From positions 2,604,001 through 2,668,000 of the forward strand of contig MU004181.1 of the NCBI GenBank assembly GCA_010093605.1: DNA of 64,000 nucleotides, in the 5' to 3' direction. Positions 41,901-55,054 of the stretch are shown piece by piece. The notes beneath the pieces are model-generated. The model was not told the origin of the DNA, did no database searches, and was given only the letters and a program-made list of their open reading frames with translations. Numbering within the stretch: position 1 is the first letter of the stretch; the number at the start of each line of letters is the position of its first letter. The position numbers and the translations under genes are program-made. The DNA comes from Lophium mytilinum. Its lineage: Eukaryota.

Positions 41901-42424
41901 TTGGTGTTGAGACGTGTAGGTACGACGCGGCGGGCGGAAAACTGAGGTCTCTTGCCACAGCTTCGCACCGCCACCGCTAATTAAGGAGGCAGGAACTATA
42001 ACCTTACCGCGCTAAGCCTATACGCGAATATAATATTAATAATATAGTACTATAAAGATTATACTAGTATAATATTTAAATAATATTAATATATATATTC
42101 TACTAGATATTTTTATTCTAGCCTATTCTATTAATATCTTATTAGAATATAGTATTATTTTTAAAATACTATAGTATTAGGTAAATAGAATTTTAGTAGT
42201 ATTTTATAGAAAATATATATTTTAATAGAAAACTATATTTAAGCTAAAACTATATTTTAGTAGAATACTATATTTAAAAATAGATATATTAAGATTACCT
42301 TAGGTATCTCTCTTTTACTCTCTTAGTAATACTATATCTTCTACTATACTAATACTAAGAAGCTAGATTCTACTTAATAATTTCTCTTTTAAAAAGTTTA
42401 CTCTAGACTAGTCTAATATCTATA

Positions 42425-42645
42425 TATTATAGCTATAATGCAACCCTTATTATAATATACTTCTATTATAAGTAATAGTATTATATAGCCTCTATTACAT
42501 GTTACTATTATATAACCTTACTTAGCGCTAGCCTTATCTACCTCTCGGCTAGTGCTCCGCGCCCTACTCTCTCTTCTTATAGCTACTTTATTATATACTT
42601 AATACTATCTAGTTTTCTATTATAATTCTATATTATACTATAATA
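42425..42645 (+). repeat. 5' LTR
   Basis: TAT...ATA termini (RIP product of TGT...ACA); 13 transitions relative to the 3' LTR by manual alignment. Confidence 0.95.
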
Positions 42646-43059
42646 TAAAGTAGCTACCCTTCTAGCTTCTAAAAGATATTAAAAGTACTCTTTACCTATC
42701 TATATATATACCGGCGCCCCTATAGCTACTAAAATTTAATTTCTATAACCTTTATTAATAAGAAACTAAAATAGAAGAAGACTCTATAACCTTAAAAGGC
42801 CCTATAACTTTATAGTAAGAATACTATACCCTATTATATATATAAACTAATGCGTAGGCCCTATAAATCTACTTACTATTACGCCCCTACCTATACGCGC
42901 ACGCGTAAACTAACTAAACTAAGTGCAGTTATTTACTAATTAACTCCGCCGCTAAAAATAGCCGCTAAGAAGCGCACTAGCTATATCTACTTACTAGCTT
43001 TTATAAAGGCCCTATAATCTTTCTACCTATATTAATCTTTTTCTCTATTCTACTACCTA

Positions 43060-45645
43060 GACTATTATCTACCTACTAGAATACTATCTACTATTACCTA
43101 ACTAGTAATAGTTAACTAGCGCAACCCTTTAATACTAGTACCTTCTTATTTAAGACCCTAGAACTATCTACCTATAATACTAAGTTATAGTAAATATACT
43201 ATAGCGCATTTAAAAGCTTTCTCTAGCGGCGTATATATTAATAAGAGTAGTAATACTAACCTTTACCCTAATATTAAGAGCTAGAATACTTAATCTATAC
43301 TAGCCTTAGACTCTTAGTATATATAATAAGAGACTTAATACGCTAAAGCCTTATATAAAAAGATAGATAAATTATCTTAATTTAGTATTAGTTCTACTCT
43401 AGAGTAGCTAGCCGCTTATAGTAAACTCTATACTACTCTAAAAGTTAGTACTATTAGACTAGGCGCAGCCGCAGTCTATAGCTGCCTCTAGCTAACTACT
43501 ATCCTCTAGTATAGTAAGCGCTCTCTTAACCTAGAGAATAAGAAGTTCTAAGTTACCTCTAATAAGAAAGATAATAAATACCTAGACTAGAAGCTTAATA
43601 AACTTAATAAGAAAGATAATACCTAATTCTAGTTAGCTATAGACCTCTAGAAAGTAGTCTACTTTACTTAAGGTAATCTTCTTAATATATAAAATAATAA
43701 TATTTCTACTAGCCTAGTTCTTCTATTTACTTAGAAAGCCTAGTGTACTAAGAAGCGCACTAATAATCTACCTCTATTAGTATAGAGCCCCTTTACTATA
43801 GCTATACTATTATAGCCTAACCTAGAATCCCCTATACTAGGCCTATTAATATACTATAACTCTAGCCGCTATAAGTTATACTTTACTATAATAGCTAAAG
43901 GTATTATATTCTATATTAACTATAATAGAGTTGCTAACGCTATTAATATTAACCTTAACTCTGCTAAAGCCTTTTATAATATAGTTTCTAAGTATTATAA
44001 GAATATATACTATAGAGTTGCTATATTTTAAAAGAACCTAGAAGAACTTTAAAAGAATATGCAAGCTAAAAATATAGAATTAAACGCTCTCTAGAACTAA
44101 GCTAAAGCTAATAACTCTAAGATTTTATACTTATAAGCTAAAGTTACTTAACTAAATAAAGATATTACGCGTCTTTAATTAGAGAATAAGAAGGCGTATA
44201 CTAAGTATACTTAATAGTTTATAACTAAATATAAAGCTTATAAAGCTAAAACTCTTCTTCTTACTAAAGTACGCTTAGTAAATAAAGCCCTTTAATAAGA
44301 CGTTACTATAGTATAATAGAATTTAGACTATCTATAAACCTAGCGTAATTACTTTAAAGAGCTTAGCCTTATCTATAAGCGGCAGTATACTAATTTAAAA
44401 GTAAACTAGATAGTAGTATTAGTGCCCGCCTAATTATATTACGCTGCCGCCGCTGCCGCAGGCAACCTTAACTATAACTTAGAAGATAATAATAACGCTA
44501 ATTATAATAACTTTACTATTATAGATAATAATACTATAACTTAGCTTATACGCCTGCAGCTCTATAGAGACTATAAGCCTAAGTTTTATAATCTCTAGAA
44601 ATTTACTAGTAAGAGTAATAAATACTAATACCTATTTTAGAAGAGCTACGCCTACGCTATCTTCTAATATAAGGGCCTAGCCTATCTAGATAAGTAGAGT
44701 AAAATAGAATATATTAAATTATACTATATTAATTACGCGGAAGCTACTATTTATAGCTATACCTAGTTTAAGAAGCCCTTACTAAATAAGAACTTTAAGA
44801 CTCTTAATAAAATGTTTACCTATATAGACCTATATTTTACTATCTTTAATAAGCCTACCTATATAGATAATATCCTCTATAGTAATAAGGTAAAAATAAA
44901 GGGCTATAAGTTATAGAATATATATATGCTACGTTTTAAAGAGATAACTAATATTAATAATAAGAACTAGATTTCTTTTGCCTCTAAGAAAGGATAGCTT
45001 AAGCGTCTGCTACGCCTAGATCTTAGCCGCTAAGTATTTAGCAGCGCTAATAGCTACTAAGATTAGCCTACGTTAGTTACTATAGTATTCTGCGCTAAAG
45101 CCTTCCTTTAGAATAATACTTAGCGTAATATAACTACCTAGCCCCCTTAATTATTTAGATTCTAAAACAGCTATAGTAATAACTACTTAAATAATTACTA
45201 ATTAAATAACTACTAGAACTAAGACCGCCGCCCTAAGCAGAGCTACGGATAATAGTTATCTATTCGCGATAATAAGAAGGACTAAAGTAACCGCCCTATT
45301 TACCTTCCTCTAGTAGTTATAATAGTACTATATACTAAAGGCTACTATTTCTACTATATTAAGAAGGGCTATTAAGCTAATAACTCTAAGCGCCTATGCG
45401 CTAATAAACCCCCTCTATTAAAGCGCAAGCTAACTAAATATCTATCTAAAGCTAATAACGGCCTTAAACTTAAGCTTTCCGCAATCTATTACGCGGATAA
45501 AGATAGTAATAACCTAATTTCTATTAATAGTAATAGAGAGAACCTCGCTATTATTACTTACGCTAATAAAACTTTATTATCTAGCGTTCTTAGTAATAGT
45601 AATAGAAATAGTAATAGTAATAGTAATAGGAAGGATTTTATATAG
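43060..45645 (+). pseudogene. gag: RIP-degraded gag (start approximate)
   Basis: Coiled-coil-like region near 44000-44400; degenerate Cys/His knuckle YFYYIKKGY (CFYCIKKGH before RIP) at about 45346-45372; frame ends ...KDFI*. Confidence 0.65.
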
Positions 45646-48600
45646 GCTCTAACTATAGTTATAGATAGAGCTATATAGAATTCTTTCTAAGTACTATTAT
45701 AGCCTATATCTAGAAGCTAGAATAGCTACCTCTAGAGCTAGATAAGATCTAGCTATCTATATGCTCTACTAACTTAATTTAGAATATTACTTATAGAAAA
45801 TAATTAAACTTTAAGTATAGAATCTAGACCCCTATAGGTATAACTAATAGCCGCTATCTTATAGATATAGGTTACTTATACTTTACCTTTATTTTATAAT
45901 TCTACGCTAAAGCTAATAAACTAATAATATTACCTCTAGCTACTTCTATTCTACTACGCTTAGCTAATAGTATACCTATAAAACTTATTACTTATAAAGC
46001 CTAGCTTATGCTATTCTTAGGTACCTATACTAAGAATATATAGTATTATATTACTAATCTTAAGGGCTATAATATTATCTTAGGTATACTATAGTTTAAG
46101 AAATATAAGCCTAATATTATATAGAGTAAATACGCACTTAACTTTAATAAGAACTTCTACTATAATTACTGCCTCTATACTAACGGATGCAGGCGCGTAT
46201 AGAGTAATAGAAATAATAGAGATATTACCTGCGTAGGAAAGCGCTTATATAATATAGCGTTACGCAATATCTTTAATAAATATTAGAAACTTAGCCTAGA
46301 ACTTAATAAGGCTAAAGATATAATAGCCGCCTACTAAAAGCTCTAATATAAAGAAAAGAAGAACTATATTATCTAACTTTAAAATAATAATTAGGAAAAG
46401 CTATAATAAATAGAGAATTATAAGCGCTGCTAACCTTAGCCTATAATTTAATAAAGCTTTACTCTAGAGATAGATCTAACTTTATATAGCCTATTTAAAC
46501 TTAATAATACTCTCTATAATATATAAACGGCTGCTTTTACCGCTAATATCTTTACTATTAACCCCTTTAACTATTATAAGTTCTTTAAAAAAATAAACCG
46601 CCCCCCTATTATAAATTAGAAAATTAAAGCCTTACTTTCTAACTAGCTCTATTATATAGCTAAGGCGTGGAACCCCTAAGAAGTAAATAAACTGCCGCCT
46701 TATAGGCTAATAAACTACGTAATTAATATCCTCCCTAGCTCTAAACTACCTACTTATAAGGTATATAGCCTCTTAAGAGACTAAGCCGCTATTATTAAAG
46801 CCTTTATTAATAAAATGCGCACTAAAGAATTTATCTACTCTAGCTTATTATTATATGCTGCACTAATACTTATTATTAAGAAACTAGAAGAAGAACTTTA
46901 AGTCTATATTAATTATTAAGGCCTTAATAAAATTAGTATTAAAAGTTATAATATACTACTACTTATTAAAGATACCCTTGCCTTATTAGCTAAAGCTAGG
47001 TACTATACTAAGCTTAATGTAATTAGCGCATTTAATATACTATAAATTAAGAAAGGCGATAAATATAAAATAGCCTTTCTTACCTATTAGAGGTTATTTA
47101 AGTTTATAGTACTTCCGTTTAGATTATATAATACACCTAGTTCCTTCTAGGCCTATATTAATAATACTTTATAGAAATACCTTAATAACTTCTATACTAT
47201 ATATATAGATAACGTTCTAATATATAGTAATATATTAGAAGAATATAAAGCGCATATTCTTATAATTATTACTAAGCTTTATAACGCTAGACTATTCCTT
47301 AATATCTATAAATATAAATTTACCGTTAATAAGGTTAAATATCTTAGTATACTTATTAGTGTTAACGGCGTTTAAATAGATCTAGTAAAGGTCTAAATAG
47401 TATTAGACTAGCTAACGCTATAAAACCTTAAAGATATTTAAGCTTTTCTTAGGTTCTATAACTTCTATTAATACTTTATTACTAATTATTCTACGTTTAT
47501 AGCCCCTCTAATAACGCTTATATTAGCTATTTAAAAAGGCTTTAAGTTTCTATAGCTAGATAATAGTAATAAAGCTAAGGCGTTCCATAATATTAAGGAA
47601 TGTTTTCGCGTAGCCCTATAGCTCGCACTATAGAACCCTAACTATAATACCTAGGTAGAATATAACTCTTTAGACTATACTATAGCTACTATACTCTTCT
47701 AAGTTTAACTAAATAGCACCCTTTATTCTATAGTATTTATATTATAATATATAACGCCGCAATAAATTAACTACGCTATCTATAATAAGGAGCTTCTTGC
47801 TATAGTCTTAGTATTTAAAGAATAGAGACTAGAGCTTGCTAGATAAAAATAAGAATATAATAGTCTAGTTAATATTATCTTAGATTATAAAAATCTTTAA
47901 ATATTTATAACCTCTAAACGCCTTAATTATTAATAAGCTAGATAGGCTAAGTTTCTTACTAAGTTTAACTTTAAGATTACCTATAAACTAGGTAAGCAGA
48001 ATAAGAAACTAGACCTACTAACTTAGTAACTAGGTAATAAGCCGGCCCTAGAAGATAATAGGTATAAGTATTAAGAGTAAGTTATACTAAAGCTATCTAA
48101 CTATAAGCTAGGGATGTATTACGCTATTAAACTAGTATATATCCTAACTAATACGTTTAAGTATAGTTCTATTAAACTAGCTAAACTAATATATAACCTT
48201 AGTAAATTTAATTACCTAGATAATAAAGTCTACTTAATAGTTACGCGTATATAACCTCCGCCCGCTATTCTAGATAAGCTAGATAATTTAGAACCGCGCG
48301 TTTACATAAGAGAATAACCTAAGAAATAGACCGCACTAGCTAATTAACCTATAGCTAGGCTAGATAAGCTAAATAACTCTATCCTAGTTCGCCGCCCACG
48401 AGGCCGCCCTAGGAAAATGCCTTAACTAGTAGCTAAGCTAGATAAGCTAAATAACTCTAGCCTAGTTCGCCCGCAAGAACGCCCTAAAAAGAATAAGATA
48501 CTACTAGTAGATAAGCTATATAATTCTACTACTAAGAAGCTGCCTATAGATAATAAGCTAAATAATTTATCTAAAGTAACTATTCTTACTAGTAATTAGA

Positions 48601-50230
48601 TTCTTTAACGGGTCTAAAAGTACTTAAAAGGTAACCCCGTTATTTAAGCTATTAAATATACTAAATACTAAAATTAGCGCTAATTACCTATATAATTCTA
48701 TTAAGACTATTATTTATAAATAGAGCTAGGTAACTATAAAGTTATTAATAATCTTCTCTACGTCCGTAAGCGGCTCTATATTCTAGATATTAAATAACTA
48801 TATACTTATATTATTTAATCTATATATAAACCTAAGCCTACTAGATATACTAGAATAACTTTAATCTATATATAACTCTATAAGTACTATTACTAGCCCT
48901 AAATAATATCCTCTATAGACTAGTATATTAGCGCCTATCTAGCTTATAAAAGATCTAAATACTCTTAAGAGGGTAAATAAAAACTGCTCCGTCCCCTGCC
49001 TATTCTAGACTAATATTAGTATTATATCTCTATTAACTTTATTACCCCCTTACTAATTTATAAGTAATAGGGACGTAAGCTTAAATATATTATAGTTATT
49101 ATTAATTAGTTTTTAAAGAAGAGAAAGTTTATAGCTATAGACTCTATAGAGGCTAAAGACGTTGCGTAGGCATTTATTAAATAGATCTAGTAAGAAGAAG
49201 AATACCTATATTCTATTATTTCTAACCGCGGACCTTAATTTATATTATATTTCTAGAAATAACTATATACTTAGGTAGAAATAAAGCTAAAGCTCTCTAC
49301 TACCTTCTACTCTAAAATAGATAGATAAATAGAAATTACTAATATAGCCCTTAAATAGTACTTATACGCGTATATTAATTATAAGTAGAATAACTAGGCT
49401 AACCTCTTACCTATTACTAAGTTTAAAGCTAATTTAGATAAGATAACTATAGGCGTTTCCCCCTTTATTACTATAAAAGAATATAATCTATATTCTAGTC
49501 TTAAGCTAGCTAATAACTCTATAGCTAAAGGACTATAGAAGGCCCTTAGAGAGAAGGCTAATGCGCTTACTAAGTAACTAAATAACCTCCGCCTCTTTCT
49601 CTATAATAAATTAATTTAGGTATAAGCTAGATAGAAAGAGTTTACTAACTATAAATAGAAACTAGCTATAGAGTTTAAAGTTAGTAACTAAGTTATATTA
49701 AATGCGCGTAATATTAAGACTTAGCGCCTAAATAAGTTACTAGACTATAAATAACTTAGTCTATTTAAAATTACTAAGGTTATTAATAATGCCGCTTACT
49801 AATTAGCCCTTCTATATACTATAAAGGGGGTGTTTAATATCTTCTATCTATAGCTACTCTATTATATTACTTATAAGCCGCTAGAAGAATAAGTCTAGAA
49901 GAAACTAGAACTAGTTAAAATTAATAAAGAAGGCTATAAGTAATAGAACGTTAATAAAATAGTTAACTTATATATTAATAATGCTATACTTAACCCAGCT
50001 ATAAACTAAAAGGGCCTGCTTTAGTATAAGATTCTCTATACTAGTTACCCTAAGTAGAATACTAATTCTTAATAGAAATTCTATACTAGTATTACTAACT
50101 ACTATAATATTATTATAGACTATTACTATACCTACCTAAAAGTAAAAGAACTTTATAAGTTCTTCTAGAAGCCTAAATATTAGAAACTACTACTTACTCT
50201 AATTATAATAACGCTCTATAGATAACGCGT
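45633..50230 (+). pseudogene. pol: RIP-degraded pol (PR-RT-RH-IN-chromodomain; end approximate)
   Basis: YNIILG (46068), YIDNVLIYS (47202, from YxDD), NYAIYNKELLAIV (47769) and SIISNRGP*F (49212) share one frame; LPFRLYNTPSSF*, LSLFKI (GPF/Y) and a chromodomain-like tail at about 49940-50100 are also present. Confidence 0.9.
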
Positions 50231-50527
50231 TCCCTACCTTACTAACTTAACTAGCACTGGCCGGCTAAGCTATTACTAATTTATATAAAATTAGACAACG
50301 CTATACTATATAGACTACGCAAATAAAGCTTAGTAATATATATAAGATTAACTATATTACTAACCTTATATCTAAGGCCTAGCGTATATCTATTATAACT
50401 CTTCTATATATATAATTATAAGATAATTTATTAAAAGAATTAACTAAAGAAGAACTACCTTATAGTAAGTATATATACTAAAATAGAAAGGCTGCATATA
50501 TATAGCTTTCTTTTTAGAGAGGGGTAG

Positions 50528-50748
50528 TATTATAGCTATAACGCGACCCTTATTATAATATACTTCTATTATAAGTAATAGTATTATATAGCCTTTATTA
50601 CATGTTACCGTTATATAACCTTACTTAGCGCTAGCCTTACCTACCTCTCGGCCGGCGCTCCGCGCCCTACTCTCTCTTCTTATAGCTACTTTATTATATA
50701 CTTAATACTATTTAGTTTTCTATTATAATCCCGTATTATACTATAATA
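50528..50748 (+). repeat. 3' LTR
   Basis: Follows the PPT; same length as the 5' LTR; followed by the TSD. Confidence 0.95.
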
Positions 50749-52204
50749 CTATAGTTCTATAGGCGGTAGGCTAGTATAAAGAAGGGGGGGTAGAGATAGA
50801 AATAAAGTACTTTAGTAGTACTAAAGTTTAAGCTTAGGTAATAGAAAAGATTATATACTTATATAAGCTAACTAGAAAATTATATTTATAGAGAAAATTA
50901 TATTTATAAAGAAAATTATATTATAGAAAATATTATATTTAAGGCTAAATACTATATTCTAATAATATAAAATTTATAGAATATTATTATTCTATTTTAT
51001 TAAACTTAAAATAGTTTTATCTTTTAATAGCCTATAGAGATAATATCTATATTATATTTATATAGCTATATAGCGCAGTAAGAAACTATACTAGAAAGTA
51101 ATAACTACCTATATTTTATCTATTCTTCTTATTCTAGCTTTAAAACTTAGTATTAGAAACTATATAAAGAGATAAGTAGGGGGACTATATATATAATAGA
51201 GAATAGTACTATCTCTATAGCTATTCTTACTACTATAGCTATATAGTAGAGTTTATATAGTATTCTTTAGCTTATATCTTACTATACTATATAGCTATAT
51301 AAATATAATATAGATATTATCTTTATAGACTATTAGAAAATAAAACTATTTTAAGTTTAATAAGATAGAATAATAATATTCTATAAATCTTATATTATTA
51401 AAATATAGTATTTAGCCTTAAATATAATATTTTTTATAATATAATTTTCTTTATAAATATAATTTTCTCTATAAATATAATTTTCTAGTTAGCTTATATA
51501 AGTATATAATCTTTTTTATTACCTAAGCTTAAACTTTAGTACTACTAGAGTACTCTACTTCTACCTCTATCCCCCCCCCTTTATGCTAGCCTACCGCCTA
51601 TAGAACTATAGATATTAGACTAGTCTAGAGTAAACTTTTTAAAAGAGAAATTATTAAGTAGAATTTAGCTTCTTAGTATTAGTATAATAGAAGATATAGT
51701 ATTACTAAAAGAGTAAAAAAGAAGTACCTAAAGTAATCTTAATATGCCTATTTTTAAATATAGTATTCTACTAAAATATAGTTTTAGCTTAAATATAGTT
51801 TTCTATTAAAATATATATTTTCTATAAAATACTACTAAAATTCTATTTACTTAATACTATAGCATCTTAAAAATAATACTATATTCTAATAAGATATTAA
51901 TAGAATAGGCTAGAATAAGAATGCCCGGTAGAATATGCATGTTAATATTATTTAAATATTGTGCTAGCATAATCTTTACAGCACCACGTTGTTAACATTA
52001 TATTCGCGTATGGGCTTAGCGCGGTAAGGTATGCCTAGAAACCAAGGTCGTTATCTAGGCATAGCTGCGCCTCAGCCTGATACCTATGTATTCGACAAAA
52101 TGTGCTGATCTCGCTGTCTTTCCGCAGGGTGATTATTCTCTGCAGCAAAGACCAGGTTTCTCGAGAACTAGGATCGAAGATTATCTTATTCCGCTCACTT
52201 TTCC

Positions 52205-55054
52205 ATGTCTGGCTCTCCTCGACCTTCCAGTCCAATTGGCTTCTACGAGTTTAGTCATGCCACCCATTCGCCGACGCTCGATGCTTCTTGGCCTCAGCTA
52301 TCCTCTCAGGAAGACACCGATGTTTCTTGGCTTCCGTTGTTCCCTCAGGAAAACACCTACGACTCCTCCTACATCCCCTTTGTAGATCCTATGAATATCC
52401 GAACGGAGGACCTTCCACACATGCCGCTACTGACCTCCCAAAGCGAGCCGCCCGAGAAGTTTTGGCCATGCCCAATCGCCACATGTCCATACCACTTGAA
52501 GGGATTCGTAAGAAAATACGACACGGATAGGCATACCTTGTCTCACTACAAGGGCACCATCGTATGCGGTTTCTGCTCAGGTTCTGGATCAAATGTCGAA
52601 AAGTCCTTCAAACGCGCAGATGTTTTCAAGCGCCACCTCCAGTACATCCACGGCGCAGAATCATTATCGCGAAACAACCGCAAGAGGTCGCGTAGGGGTA
52701 GAAAGATAAAGAAAGCCACGCAAAAGAACCTCGAAGGTTCTTGCTCGACCTGTTCTGTGGCTTTCAGCGCCCAGGCACTCTACGAACATCTCGACGACTG
52801 CCTTCTGCAATATATCAGAGAAACGGACCCGTATTATATTAGACAAACGGACCTGAAAGATAGCCCTTCGTCTTTGGCTGCAGACGTTCCAAATGGTCTG
52901 GAACCCCTTCTCGATGCTAGCGCCGCAGCGCGTCCAATTTTGCCAATACCACGGCCACTTCAGAACACGCCATGGACCGAGGGACCGCGTGCAACGCTTT
53001 GGGATACTTTGAATCCATCAAAGATTCTGTCATCTGGATCATTCGACTATCCCCATAAGTTAAAGTCTAGTAGCCTAGAAAAAAAGCGGAAACGATCAAT
53101 TTCAGTGGCTTCCTGCGAGGAAATGCCACCCCCAAAAAGTCCATTGCCACTGTCAAGCCGATCTAGTAAGTTACTAGAGCCTCTTAGGCCCACAGAGGTG
53201 GAATCCAGCCCAGCGAACAAGGAAATAATGCCCGTAACAAACGCAAAAACACATCTTACGGTCAACGCACAATACATTTCATTGAATTTGAAGTCTAAGG
53301 AAGAAATTCGAGTTCTATCCGTCATAGAGCCACAAGGTCACCAGTATAGATTGTTATCCATCAACTACGCCCAATCAAACCCACCTCCATATGTGGCGCT
53401 ATCCTACGCTTGGGGTAAACATGATATTGCAGTGGATATCTACCCACCCAATCGGATTTGGATAAACGACCAGCCCTATGACATCCGACCCAACCTTTAC
53501 GCCTTCCTCACACAGTGGGGTCCTACACTTCATATGAAGAGCCTGCCCTTGTGGGTAGATGCCGTGTGCATTGACCAAGACAACCTCGAAGAGCGCGAGA
53601 GCCAAGTTGCACAGATGCGGGAAATCTTTACTAAAGCAAAAGCCGTCTGGGCTTGGTTAGGACCCTCAAATCATGCCAGCGGTACCGCGGGGGTTTTTGA
53701 GAAGCTCTATGAATGGATAGCACGGTTTCGAGAACCCGCTGAGGATGCACGTTACAGCCCAGACTCCCTGGCAAACTATGGAGCCCCTTCTGCACCTTCG
53801 ACAAAATTCTTCTGGTCGGGACTCACCCAGATGATCACAAGAACCTGGTGGATGCGTGCGTGGATTGTCCAAGAGGTTACCTGCAATCCCTCCACTTTCT
53901 TGCTGAATGGGCCTACTTGTATGAAGTACCACGCATGGCGGGAGTCAATACTTGCCATGAACAAAAGTATTGTTCTCAAGTCAAAGATCCTTCCTGCGCA
54001 CTGGGATGCTTTTAGAGAGCACTTCAACGCAGCGATTACGTTGCTCAACCTTGGAGAACGACTCGCACAATCTAGGTCCGCTGATAAACCACCGGCAAGC
54101 GCACTTCTAGAAACATTGGAGATGATGTCTCACACCAAATGCTCGGATCCAAGAGACAAGGTATACGCCATATTAGGTCTGACTCCGGATCTGGTACGCT
54201 CAATGATTCTGCCAGACTACAAAATAGCTACCCAGAATCTATGGCTTCATGTTGCCCGATTCTTCTGCTCGTACATGCCCGACGGCCATAAACTCGAATT
54301 CCTCCGCGACTTGCCCAACGCTCGTCAGAGGCGAAGCCTCCTAGGAACGAGAACATCCGACAAACCATCTTGGATCGTCGATTGGGCAGCAGTAAACTCT
54401 GAACAGTCGCAATACTTCTCGCAATATCGAGGCAACCGCCGATACTACAACCCCGATTATTGGAACTACACTAACCCACTCATCGAGGACAGCCGCCTGA
54501 TTATCCGCGGCGCATGCATTGGCAGAGTTAATGAGGTACTCCCCTCATGGATGGCACAAGGCCACGTAGCTCCAGCCGAGCTGCGTGACGTCTGCCAAAG
54601 CATCGCCTCAACCTCAAAGCCATACCCAACCAAAGAGCCCATGGCCGACGTGGTCGACCGTACTATAATTATGGACCTAGACTGGAGCAAATGGCCCCAC
54701 GTAACGCGGGACGGTCGCGCTGAATGGAGCCAATATCTCCACGACGGAGCCAACCTTGCATCCGCAACCTATGAGAGGTGGAGACACCACGGACACTCTC
54801 TATCCATGGCTGCTAAGAACCGGCGGCTGTTCTGGACGGACAAAGGATATCTAGGCCTCGGGCCGTTGCAGCTACTGCCTGGCGACATATTGTGTGTCTT
54901 CTTTGGGAGCCAGATGCTGCAACTTCTTGGTGAGATCGCGCCGGGGCGATACGAGTACATTGGCGAATGCTATGTGCATGGCTTGATGGACGGGGAGGCA
55001 ATGTGGACGATAAACGACCAGAAGGATAATAGTGAGCTCTTCGTGATCGAGTGA
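52205..55054 (+). CDS. HET-domain (HET-6-like) protein with N-terminal C2H2-type zinc-finger module, 949 aa
   Basis: YVALSYAWG, LWVDAVCIDQDNLEERESQVAQMREIF, WWMRAWIVQEV, CSDPRDKVYAILG, PSWIVDW, IGECYVHGLMDGE; N-terminal CPIATC..H....H, CGFC..H....H and CSTC..H...C. Confidence 0.93.
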   Translation: MSGSPRPSSPIGFYEFSHATHSPTLDASWPQLSSQEDTDVSWLPLFPQENTYDSSYIPFVDPMNIRTEDLPHMPLLTSQSEPPEKFWPCPIATCPYHLKGFVRKYDTDRHTLSHYKGTIVCGFCSGSGSNVEKSFKRADVFKRHLQYIHGAESLSRNNRKRSRRGRKIKKATQKNLEGSCSTCSVAFSAQALYEHLDDCLLQYIRETDPYYIRQTDLKDSPSSLAADVPNGLEPLLDASAAARPILPIPRPLQNTPWTEGPRATLWDTLNPSKILSSGSFDYPHKLKSSSLEKKRKRSISVASCEEMPPPKSPLPLSSRSSKLLEPLRPTEVESSPANKEIMPVTNAKTHLTVNAQYISLNLKSKEEIRVLSVIEPQGHQYRLLSINYAQSNPPPYVALSYAWGKHDIAVDIYPPNRIWINDQPYDIRPNLYAFLTQWGPTLHMKSLPLWVDAVCIDQDNLEERESQVAQMREIFTKAKAVWAWLGPSNHASGTAGVFEKLYEWIARFREPAEDARYSPDSLANYGAPSAPSTKFFWSGLTQMITRTWWMRAWIVQEVTCNPSTFLLNGPTCMKYHAWRESILAMNKSIVLKSKILPAHWDAFREHFNAAITLLNLGERLAQSRSADKPPASALLETLEMMSHTKCSDPRDKVYAILGLTPDLVRSMILPDYKIATQNLWLHVARFFCSYMPDGHKLEFLRDLPNARQRRSLLGTRTSDKPSWIVDWAAVNSEQSQYFSQYRGNRRYYNPDYWNYTNPLIEDSRLIIRGACIGRVNEVLPSWMAQGHVAPAELRDVCQSIASTSKPYPTKEPMADVVDRTIIMDLDWSKWPHVTRDGRAEWSQYLHDGANLASATYERWRHHGHSLSMAAKNRRLFWTDKGYLGLGPLQLLPGDILCVFFGSQMLQLLGEIAPGRYEYIGECYVHGLMDGEAMWTINDQKDNSELFVIE

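Follow-up and report, generated by a model that had tools for sequence, protein, structure and literature searches.

It has long been asked how retrotransposons find safe places to insert, and to our knowledge the choice made by chromoviruses has been credited to the chromodomain only. The locus described here raises the question of whether such an element can carry a second part that reads DNA, and whether that part steers its integration. The window, by which we mean the whole 64,000-nucleotide stretch of Lophium mytilinum DNA that was analysed (G000:C1:2604001-2668000, in a genome of 43.4 Mb and 49 contigs), contains a retrotransposon in which a first-pass annotation had read tandem AT-hook repeats within the Pol frame, and had suggested that these hooks, paired with a chromodomain, aim integration at AT-rich, RIP-derived heterochromatin.

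The element lies in a 10-kb block of low GC (42001-52030; 21-31%, against ~52% in the surroundings) with an excess of TpA, as left by RIP. The element spans 42425-50748, has the direct LTRs (94% identical) and the short target-site duplication (TSD; 5 bp, on both flanks) of Ty3/gypsy elements, and has been wrecked by RIP, with 115 stops per 1437 codons in its Pol frame (Table 1). Its domains follow the order PR-RT-RH-IN, the same order that is given by Pfam matches in the least mutated copy of its subfamily (subfamily A, see below), where the protease match is weak (gag-asp_proteas, E 0.012), RVT_1 is matched at E 3e-29, rve and SH3_Tf2-1 are both found and Pfam Gag has no match. In a quick RT tree, which included no named reference elements, it groups with fungal-type chromodomain elements (SH-aLRT 91). 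By structure, the element is a Ty3/gypsy chromovirus. It is nested in a RIPed fold-back element (arms 754 nt, 93%), whose arms contain 17-35-nt tandem repeats and which stands alone amid gene-rich DNA. To the right of the block, at 52180-53000, there is an open frame with a 39-nt two-copy repeat (52279-52357) and a Cys/His spacing that, by eye, resembles C2H2 zinc fingers.

Table 1. Features of the retrotransposon and its host element, in window positions; domain limits were counted from the translation and are hence approximate.
Feature	Positions	Strand	Remarks
Host fold-back (TIR) element, RIPed	42001..52030	.	~1.7 kb, split by the retrotransposon; 193-nt spacer
Left TSD	42420..42424	+	CTATA
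5' LTR	42425..42645	+	221 nt
Gag region	42650..45700	+	approximate limits; heavy RIP
Aspartic protease remnant	45855..46150	+	approximate; counted on translation
Reverse transcriptase remnant	46700..47430	+	approximate; translation; YIDN at 47202
RNase H remnant	47650..48030	+	approximate; translation; RT_RNaseH found in P0001 (see text)
Repeat unit 1	48270..48326	+	acidic head and degenerate hook RE*PKK (48309-48326)
Repeat unit 2	48360..48416	+	acidic head and intact AT-hook RRPRGRPRK (48390-48416)
Repeat unit 3	48438..48491	+	acidic head and degenerate hook RPQERPKK (48468-48491)
Integrase N-terminal extension and H2C2 zinc finger remnant	48600..48960	+	approximate
Integrase core and SH3 remnant	49000..49860	+	approximate; translation; SIISNRG at 49212
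Chromodomain remnant	49945..50140	+	approximate; custom profile, E 5e-7
3' LTR	50528..50748	+	221 nt; polypurine tract before it
Right TSD	50749..50753	+	CTATA

The repeats that had been described between RNase H and integrase are present as three units of 78-90 nt, all in one frame. Their acidic heads begin with a spacing of 90 and then 78 nt; TRF reports a period of 78 with 2.2 copies and a score of 203, and a repeat search finds two 50-nt copies, 90% identical, within the array. The HMGA-type AT-hook has an RGRP core with basic flanks, and the three motifs that the first-pass annotation had read as intact or degenerate hooks were each found where it had put them, sharing their frame (start mod 3 = 0) with the YIDN and SIISNRG motifs of the reverse transcriptase and integrase. 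Pfam AT_hook gives no match to the window's own hook stretch, which is too damaged. In shuffled versions of the element (n=200), RGRP occurs in 4% and the full motif, [RP]RGRP[RK][RK], in 0/200, a result that together with the natural copies described below rules out that RGRP is an artefact of RIP or of chance. The proposal that the two degenerate hooks were once RGRP is borne out by other natural copies, which read RGRP at those positions.

A genome search with the linker region gave at least 65 matches, which sort into two subfamilies: the 15 copies of A, the window copy among them, have a long linker and the 17 of B a short one. All 15 A copies carry units, four of them three and the other 11 two, so that the insert is family-wide, as its reading as a family trait implied, and an insert private to the window copy is ruled out. 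Despite RIP, GRP is kept in 20 of the 34 units and RGRP in 13. The least mutated A copy (G000:C21:300936-309149) has a GC of 0.50 and LTRs that are 98.6% identical, yet stops break it; RGRP occurs twice, between RNase H and the H2C2 finger, within an open stretch of 320 codons (P0001). The isolated 57-aa linker of this least-RIPed copy scores 20.8 bits on PF02178, above the cut-off of 17.4, whereas the whole 320-aa P0001 scores 15.2 bits, below it. Because natural copies read RGRP and the linker of one of them passes Pfam, we regard the motif question as settled. In an AlphaFold2 model of P0001, residues 121-219 are without secondary structure (pLDDT ~45-58, with a small alignment depth there) and residues 220-320 are folded with high confidence, which places the hooks in a predicted disordered segment.

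Upstream of the array, in both A and B, there is a hydrophobic motif that ends in VTR, similar to motifs in P0011 and P0196, which is the putative protease site between reverse transcriptase and integrase. If it is a cleavage site, the hooks would start the mature integrase. The best matches in a fold search of P0001 (Foldseek) are Ty3 integrase chains, weak at E 0.12-0.34, and the search returned just weak Ty3 and foamy-virus integrase entries (E 0.12 or worse). Ty3 integrase possesses an N-terminal extended domain (PMC8632968, partial text), and thus the array would sit just upstream of that domain.

The contig of the least mutated A copy (G000:C21, 614 kb; loci L031-L033, L037, L038, L050 and L120-L125) is repeat-dense, and its repeats (GC 0.33-0.50) are less RIPed than those on larger contigs; several families have their least mutated copies here. 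In the least mutated A copy, Gag and Pol are in different frames (L031 7170-10000), which suggests a frameshift. On another contig, a 148-nt LTR piece severed by a later insertion (L126 7242-7390; G000:C2:1597242-1597390) is nearly RIP-free and matches the least mutated LTR at 97%, which would be expected of a short piece if such pieces escape RIP. Of the sequencing runs listed as containing the sequence, two are of DNA and none of RNA, and the two DNA runs may be where this DNA comes from.

The sister subfamily lacks the hooks. GRP occurs in 0 of 17 B linkers (16 complete and one interrupted by an A copy), which instead have a pair of acidic heads and, directly after the same putative cleavage motif as in A, a patch rich in Arg. 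No hooks were found elsewhere in B, in six copies searched whole in three forward frames, where RIP could hide some. Outside these two subfamilies, the Pol proteins of database relatives were searched for hooks upstream of the integrase finger, and GRP was found in 0 of 150 complete linkers (from 203 proteins), which makes the array specific to the A lineage. Nor was an AT-hook seen C-terminal to the chromodomain in the first 192 database proteins. The same holds for nine copies of more distant families of the same genome, which have no linker GRP, and no hooked relatives were returned by a linker-only protein search or from metagenome and viral contigs, phage records and PDB sequences; Atlas matches were all under 0.9. 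The linkers of the relatives are mostly acidic and without a basic patch, range from ~30 to 300 aa and often contain small tandem repeats. Counted in transversions, the distance is 0.031 among A copies, 0.033 among B copies, 0.133 from A to B and ~0.21 to the next family, so that A and B are sister clusters. This history rests on the distances and not on trees: the protein tree is unfinished, is subject to RIP-composition bias and places B inside A, and the purine/pyrimidine ML tree is poorly rooted. The shortest history is a gain of the hooks on the A stem; the hooks may also have been gained earlier and then lost in B, and neither tree tells the two histories apart. The four three-unit copies of A fall into two pairs that differ in their second unit, which points to repeated unit expansion or to recombination.

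Several other features of these copies were noted. Later insertions fall within the ~350-nt linker in three cases (G000:C7:186378, C2:1564280 and C23:34427), in one of which an A copy sits in the linker of a B copy; the trio may be chance, the search having used the linker region. Two RIPed B copies (L082/L083; G000:C14:464960 and C8:1397202) have 3' LTRs that are 100% identical although their TSDs are distinct, by recent gene conversion or assembly collapse. The 5' LTRs of two B copies on different contigs (L094/L095; G000:C19:1046840 and C12:1647808; L110-L111) share 14 upstream bases, which suggests a duplication that included the flank, and the C12 copy has a partly doubled 3' LTR.

RIP produces transitions only, and for this reason we counted transversions to ask how the units have changed. 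In the RGRP core of the 34 units, transversions occur at 4/5 silent sites and at 0/7 replacement sites (Fisher p 0.010), a test of 12 sites in related, non-independent units in which one of the four silent changes comes from a single unit. In the acidic head the corresponding counts are 2/5 and 4/22 (p 0.30). At the level of copies, with 13 of the 15 A copies aligned and changes counted if common to at least two copies, replacement sites had changed in 0/15 cases in the hooks, 0/155 in RNase H and 0/250 in the integrase N-terminal domains, and in 5/82 in the other codons of the units (pN/pS 0.79). We judge the hooks to be selected because the RIP-independent changes in the core are silent and never replacement, a pattern that, on small numbers and related units, fits purifying selection. 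These counts bear on the possibility that the array came about neutrally, through slippage or template-switching in a repeat-prone linker, in which RGRP arose once by chance and was then copied. The wide length range of the clade's linkers, with their frequent small tandem repeats, the same duplicated acidic head in B without hooks, and the variable number of units among A copies are all compatible with such an origin, but it does not explain why core transversions are silent while neighbouring codons change freely, nor why no A copy has lost the array (15/15), and we consider it very improbable.

The other half of the original suggestion was that the hooks are paired with a chromodomain, and this was confirmed with a profile built here from 12 PF00385-bearing tails, flanking tail sequence included, which matches the least mutated A copy (E 4e-23), B (E 2e-21) and the window copy. 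Pfam Chromo itself has no direct match in the A, B and window copies and matches the close relatives P0005 and P0002. By eye, the three cage residues, which are aromatic in group I chromodomains, are W, Y and H in A and B, where the relatives have Y/W, W/Y and Y/F; the third position (window 49945-50140; L031 3990-4250) is thus His, not a standard aromatic residue, where relatives have Tyr or Phe, so that the chromodomain may be a weak reader. Both subfamilies carry the same, divergent chromodomain at the integrase C-terminus.

Do the hooks steer integration? We compared 14 scorable A and 14 scorable B insertion sites, having dropped A6 (5' end off the contig), B22b (no left flank in the set) and B8a and B23 (LTR end missing) and kept B7 despite a TSD that is one base off. 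The TSDs match in 14/14 scorable A copies, and every one of these sites, all of them repeats, has at least 60% AT within 100 nt per side, a level reached by 33 (8%) of 398 windows of 200 nt sampled from the genome, in which RIP-like DNA makes up 5 of 80 sampled 1-kb bins. A13 had seemed to be inserted in unique DNA but falls within a small TIR element, ~150 nt from its end. The first-pass annotation had held that one cannot see whether the host was AT-rich before insertion. That is correct for the window copy, as TSDs cannot date the RIP of the host, and does not apply to the least mutated A copy, whose CpA index is 0.86 inside and 0.41 and 0.47 in the flanks: because it is barely RIPed between heavily RIPed flanks, this copy most likely entered already-RIPed, AT-rich DNA.

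The hook-less B sites behave in the same way. All 14 have at least 60% AT within 100 nt per side, and the mean AT within 10, 25 and 100 nt is 0.72, 0.77 and 0.74 for B versus 0.68, 0.71 and 0.72 for A (two-sided p 0.58, 0.09 and 0.12; one-sided p for A > B 0.94-0.96). Nor do A and B sites differ in their A-tract counts, and the least mutated B copy repeats this CpA pattern in weaker form (flanks 0.23 and 0.28, inside 0.60). Since B sites are as AT-rich as A sites, placement in repeats is strong yet independent of the hooks, and the idea that hooks are needed for it is not supported. The claim that the hooks aim integration at AT-rich heterochromatin finds no support in the comparison of flanks, in which A shows no excess over B. 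Later RIP and the loss of genic insertions could mask a finer difference between A and B, which limits the power of this comparison, and could on their own account for some of the placement. A true second targeting module, acting with the chromodomain on AT-rich, RIP-derived heterochromatin, would agree with the AT-rich sites of A, with the RIPed flanks of its least mutated copy, with a chromodomain that is perhaps a weak reader and with the hooks of CHAP, which direct the HCHC complex to RIPed DNA (PMC7544195, partial text); given that hook-less B shares the AT-rich sites, the A-tract counts and the contrast between a less RIPed copy and its flanks, we think such a module unlikely.

We therefore put forward, tentatively and with slightly less than even confidence, a reading of these sequences in which integrase bears the hooks as an accessory minor-groove tether, which would add avidity for AT-rich DNA or chromatin and would not set the class of target. 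The two or three tandem AT-hooks of subfamily A lie in a linker, predicted to be disordered, that joins RNase H to the N-terminal extension of integrase. In this scheme, the protease would cut upstream of the array and so leave the hooks on integrase, where they would hold on to A/T tracts through the minor groove and raise the avidity for DNA or chromatin. Placement in RIPed repeats would be set by features that A and B share, namely the chromodomain and/or the loss of genic insertions, and because hook-less B lands in the same AT-rich DNA, the hooks look like an add-on and not a steering device. Some points speak against the tether. The hooks could remain on reverse transcriptase, the cleavage motif being an assumption of ours, the acidic head before each hook could weaken DNA binding, and RIP makes TpA steps more than A-tracts.

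The absence of a difference between A and B targets is also what would be seen if the basic RGRP(K/R)K served nuclear import, or bound the element's own cDNA or RNA, and not host target DNA. AT-hooks bind RNA too, and in LEDGF the hooks and the NLS form one element (PMC11354804, partial text); the adjacent N-terminal extension of Ty3 stabilises the contact with the LTR end (PMC8632968, partial text), and the Arg-rich patch of B, placed after the same putative cleavage motif, could serve equally. Import would not need the core Gly and Pro, which are conserved, the unmutated LTRs of the element family are not AT-rich, and most relatives manage with acidic linkers that have no basic patch, and so we regard this explanation as somewhat unlikely.

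Subfamily A resembles fungal chromoviruses such as MAGGY in its PR-RT-RH-IN order, in the SH3 domain and chromodomain at the integrase end, in its 5-bp TSD and in being lodged in heterochromatin-like repeats; the chromodomain of MAGGY is reported to bind H3K9me2/3 (Gao et al. 2008, as cited in PMC3350952, partial text). It differs in the hook array of its RH-IN linker, which none of the 150 relatives has, and in a His-bearing chromodomain missed by Pfam Chromo. With HMGA-type AT-hooks (PF02178) the array shares the RGRP core, the basic flanks, the tandem arrangement and the disorder, and its isolated linker passes the cut-off, but it lies within a retrotransposon polyprotein, has an acidic head before each hook and is known here from sequence. 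No description of such an array was found in a literature search for AT-hooks in retrotransposon proteins: the word 'hook' is absent from the main text of a survey of fungal LTR elements (PMC3248453), whose supplementary domain lists could differ, and from the main texts of PMC3350952 and PMC2774666, and 'transpos' is absent from the available text of an AT-hook review (PMC11354804).

The placing of tandem hooks next to a histone reader has precedents in CHAP of HCHC (PMC7544195) and in LEDGF/p75 (PMC11354804; both partial texts). The Neurospora HCHC complex (HP1, CDP-2, HDA-1 and CHAP) also combines a chromodomain with AT-hooks in finding RIPed heterochromatin (PMC7544195, PMC13297926, partial texts); it is a multi-protein deacetylase complex of the host, and we draw an analogy and claim no homology. 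LEDGF/p75 likewise joins a histone reader to two AT-hooks and an NLS and tethers integrase to chromatin (PMC5053271, PMC11354804, partial texts), but is a host protein that acts in trans and is aimed at active genes, whereas the hooks of subfamily A are in its own polyprotein. By this analogy the element might have built a cis version of a host dual reader, one that recognises both H3K9 methylation and the AT-rich scar of RIP and so hides among dead repeats, which we consider doubtful.

As far as sequence can tell, the AT-hook array of subfamily A is real, selected and lineage-specific; its role in targeting is unproven, and the B control argues against a requirement for it. Since B lands in RIPed DNA without hooks, the importance of the array is capped unless binding or retargeting says otherwise. 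An AT-hook array that is under selection and lies on the integrase side would give a chromovirus, besides its chromodomain, a second part that reads DNA, and the hooked and hook-less sisters within one genome form a matched pair that makes the targeting idea testable.
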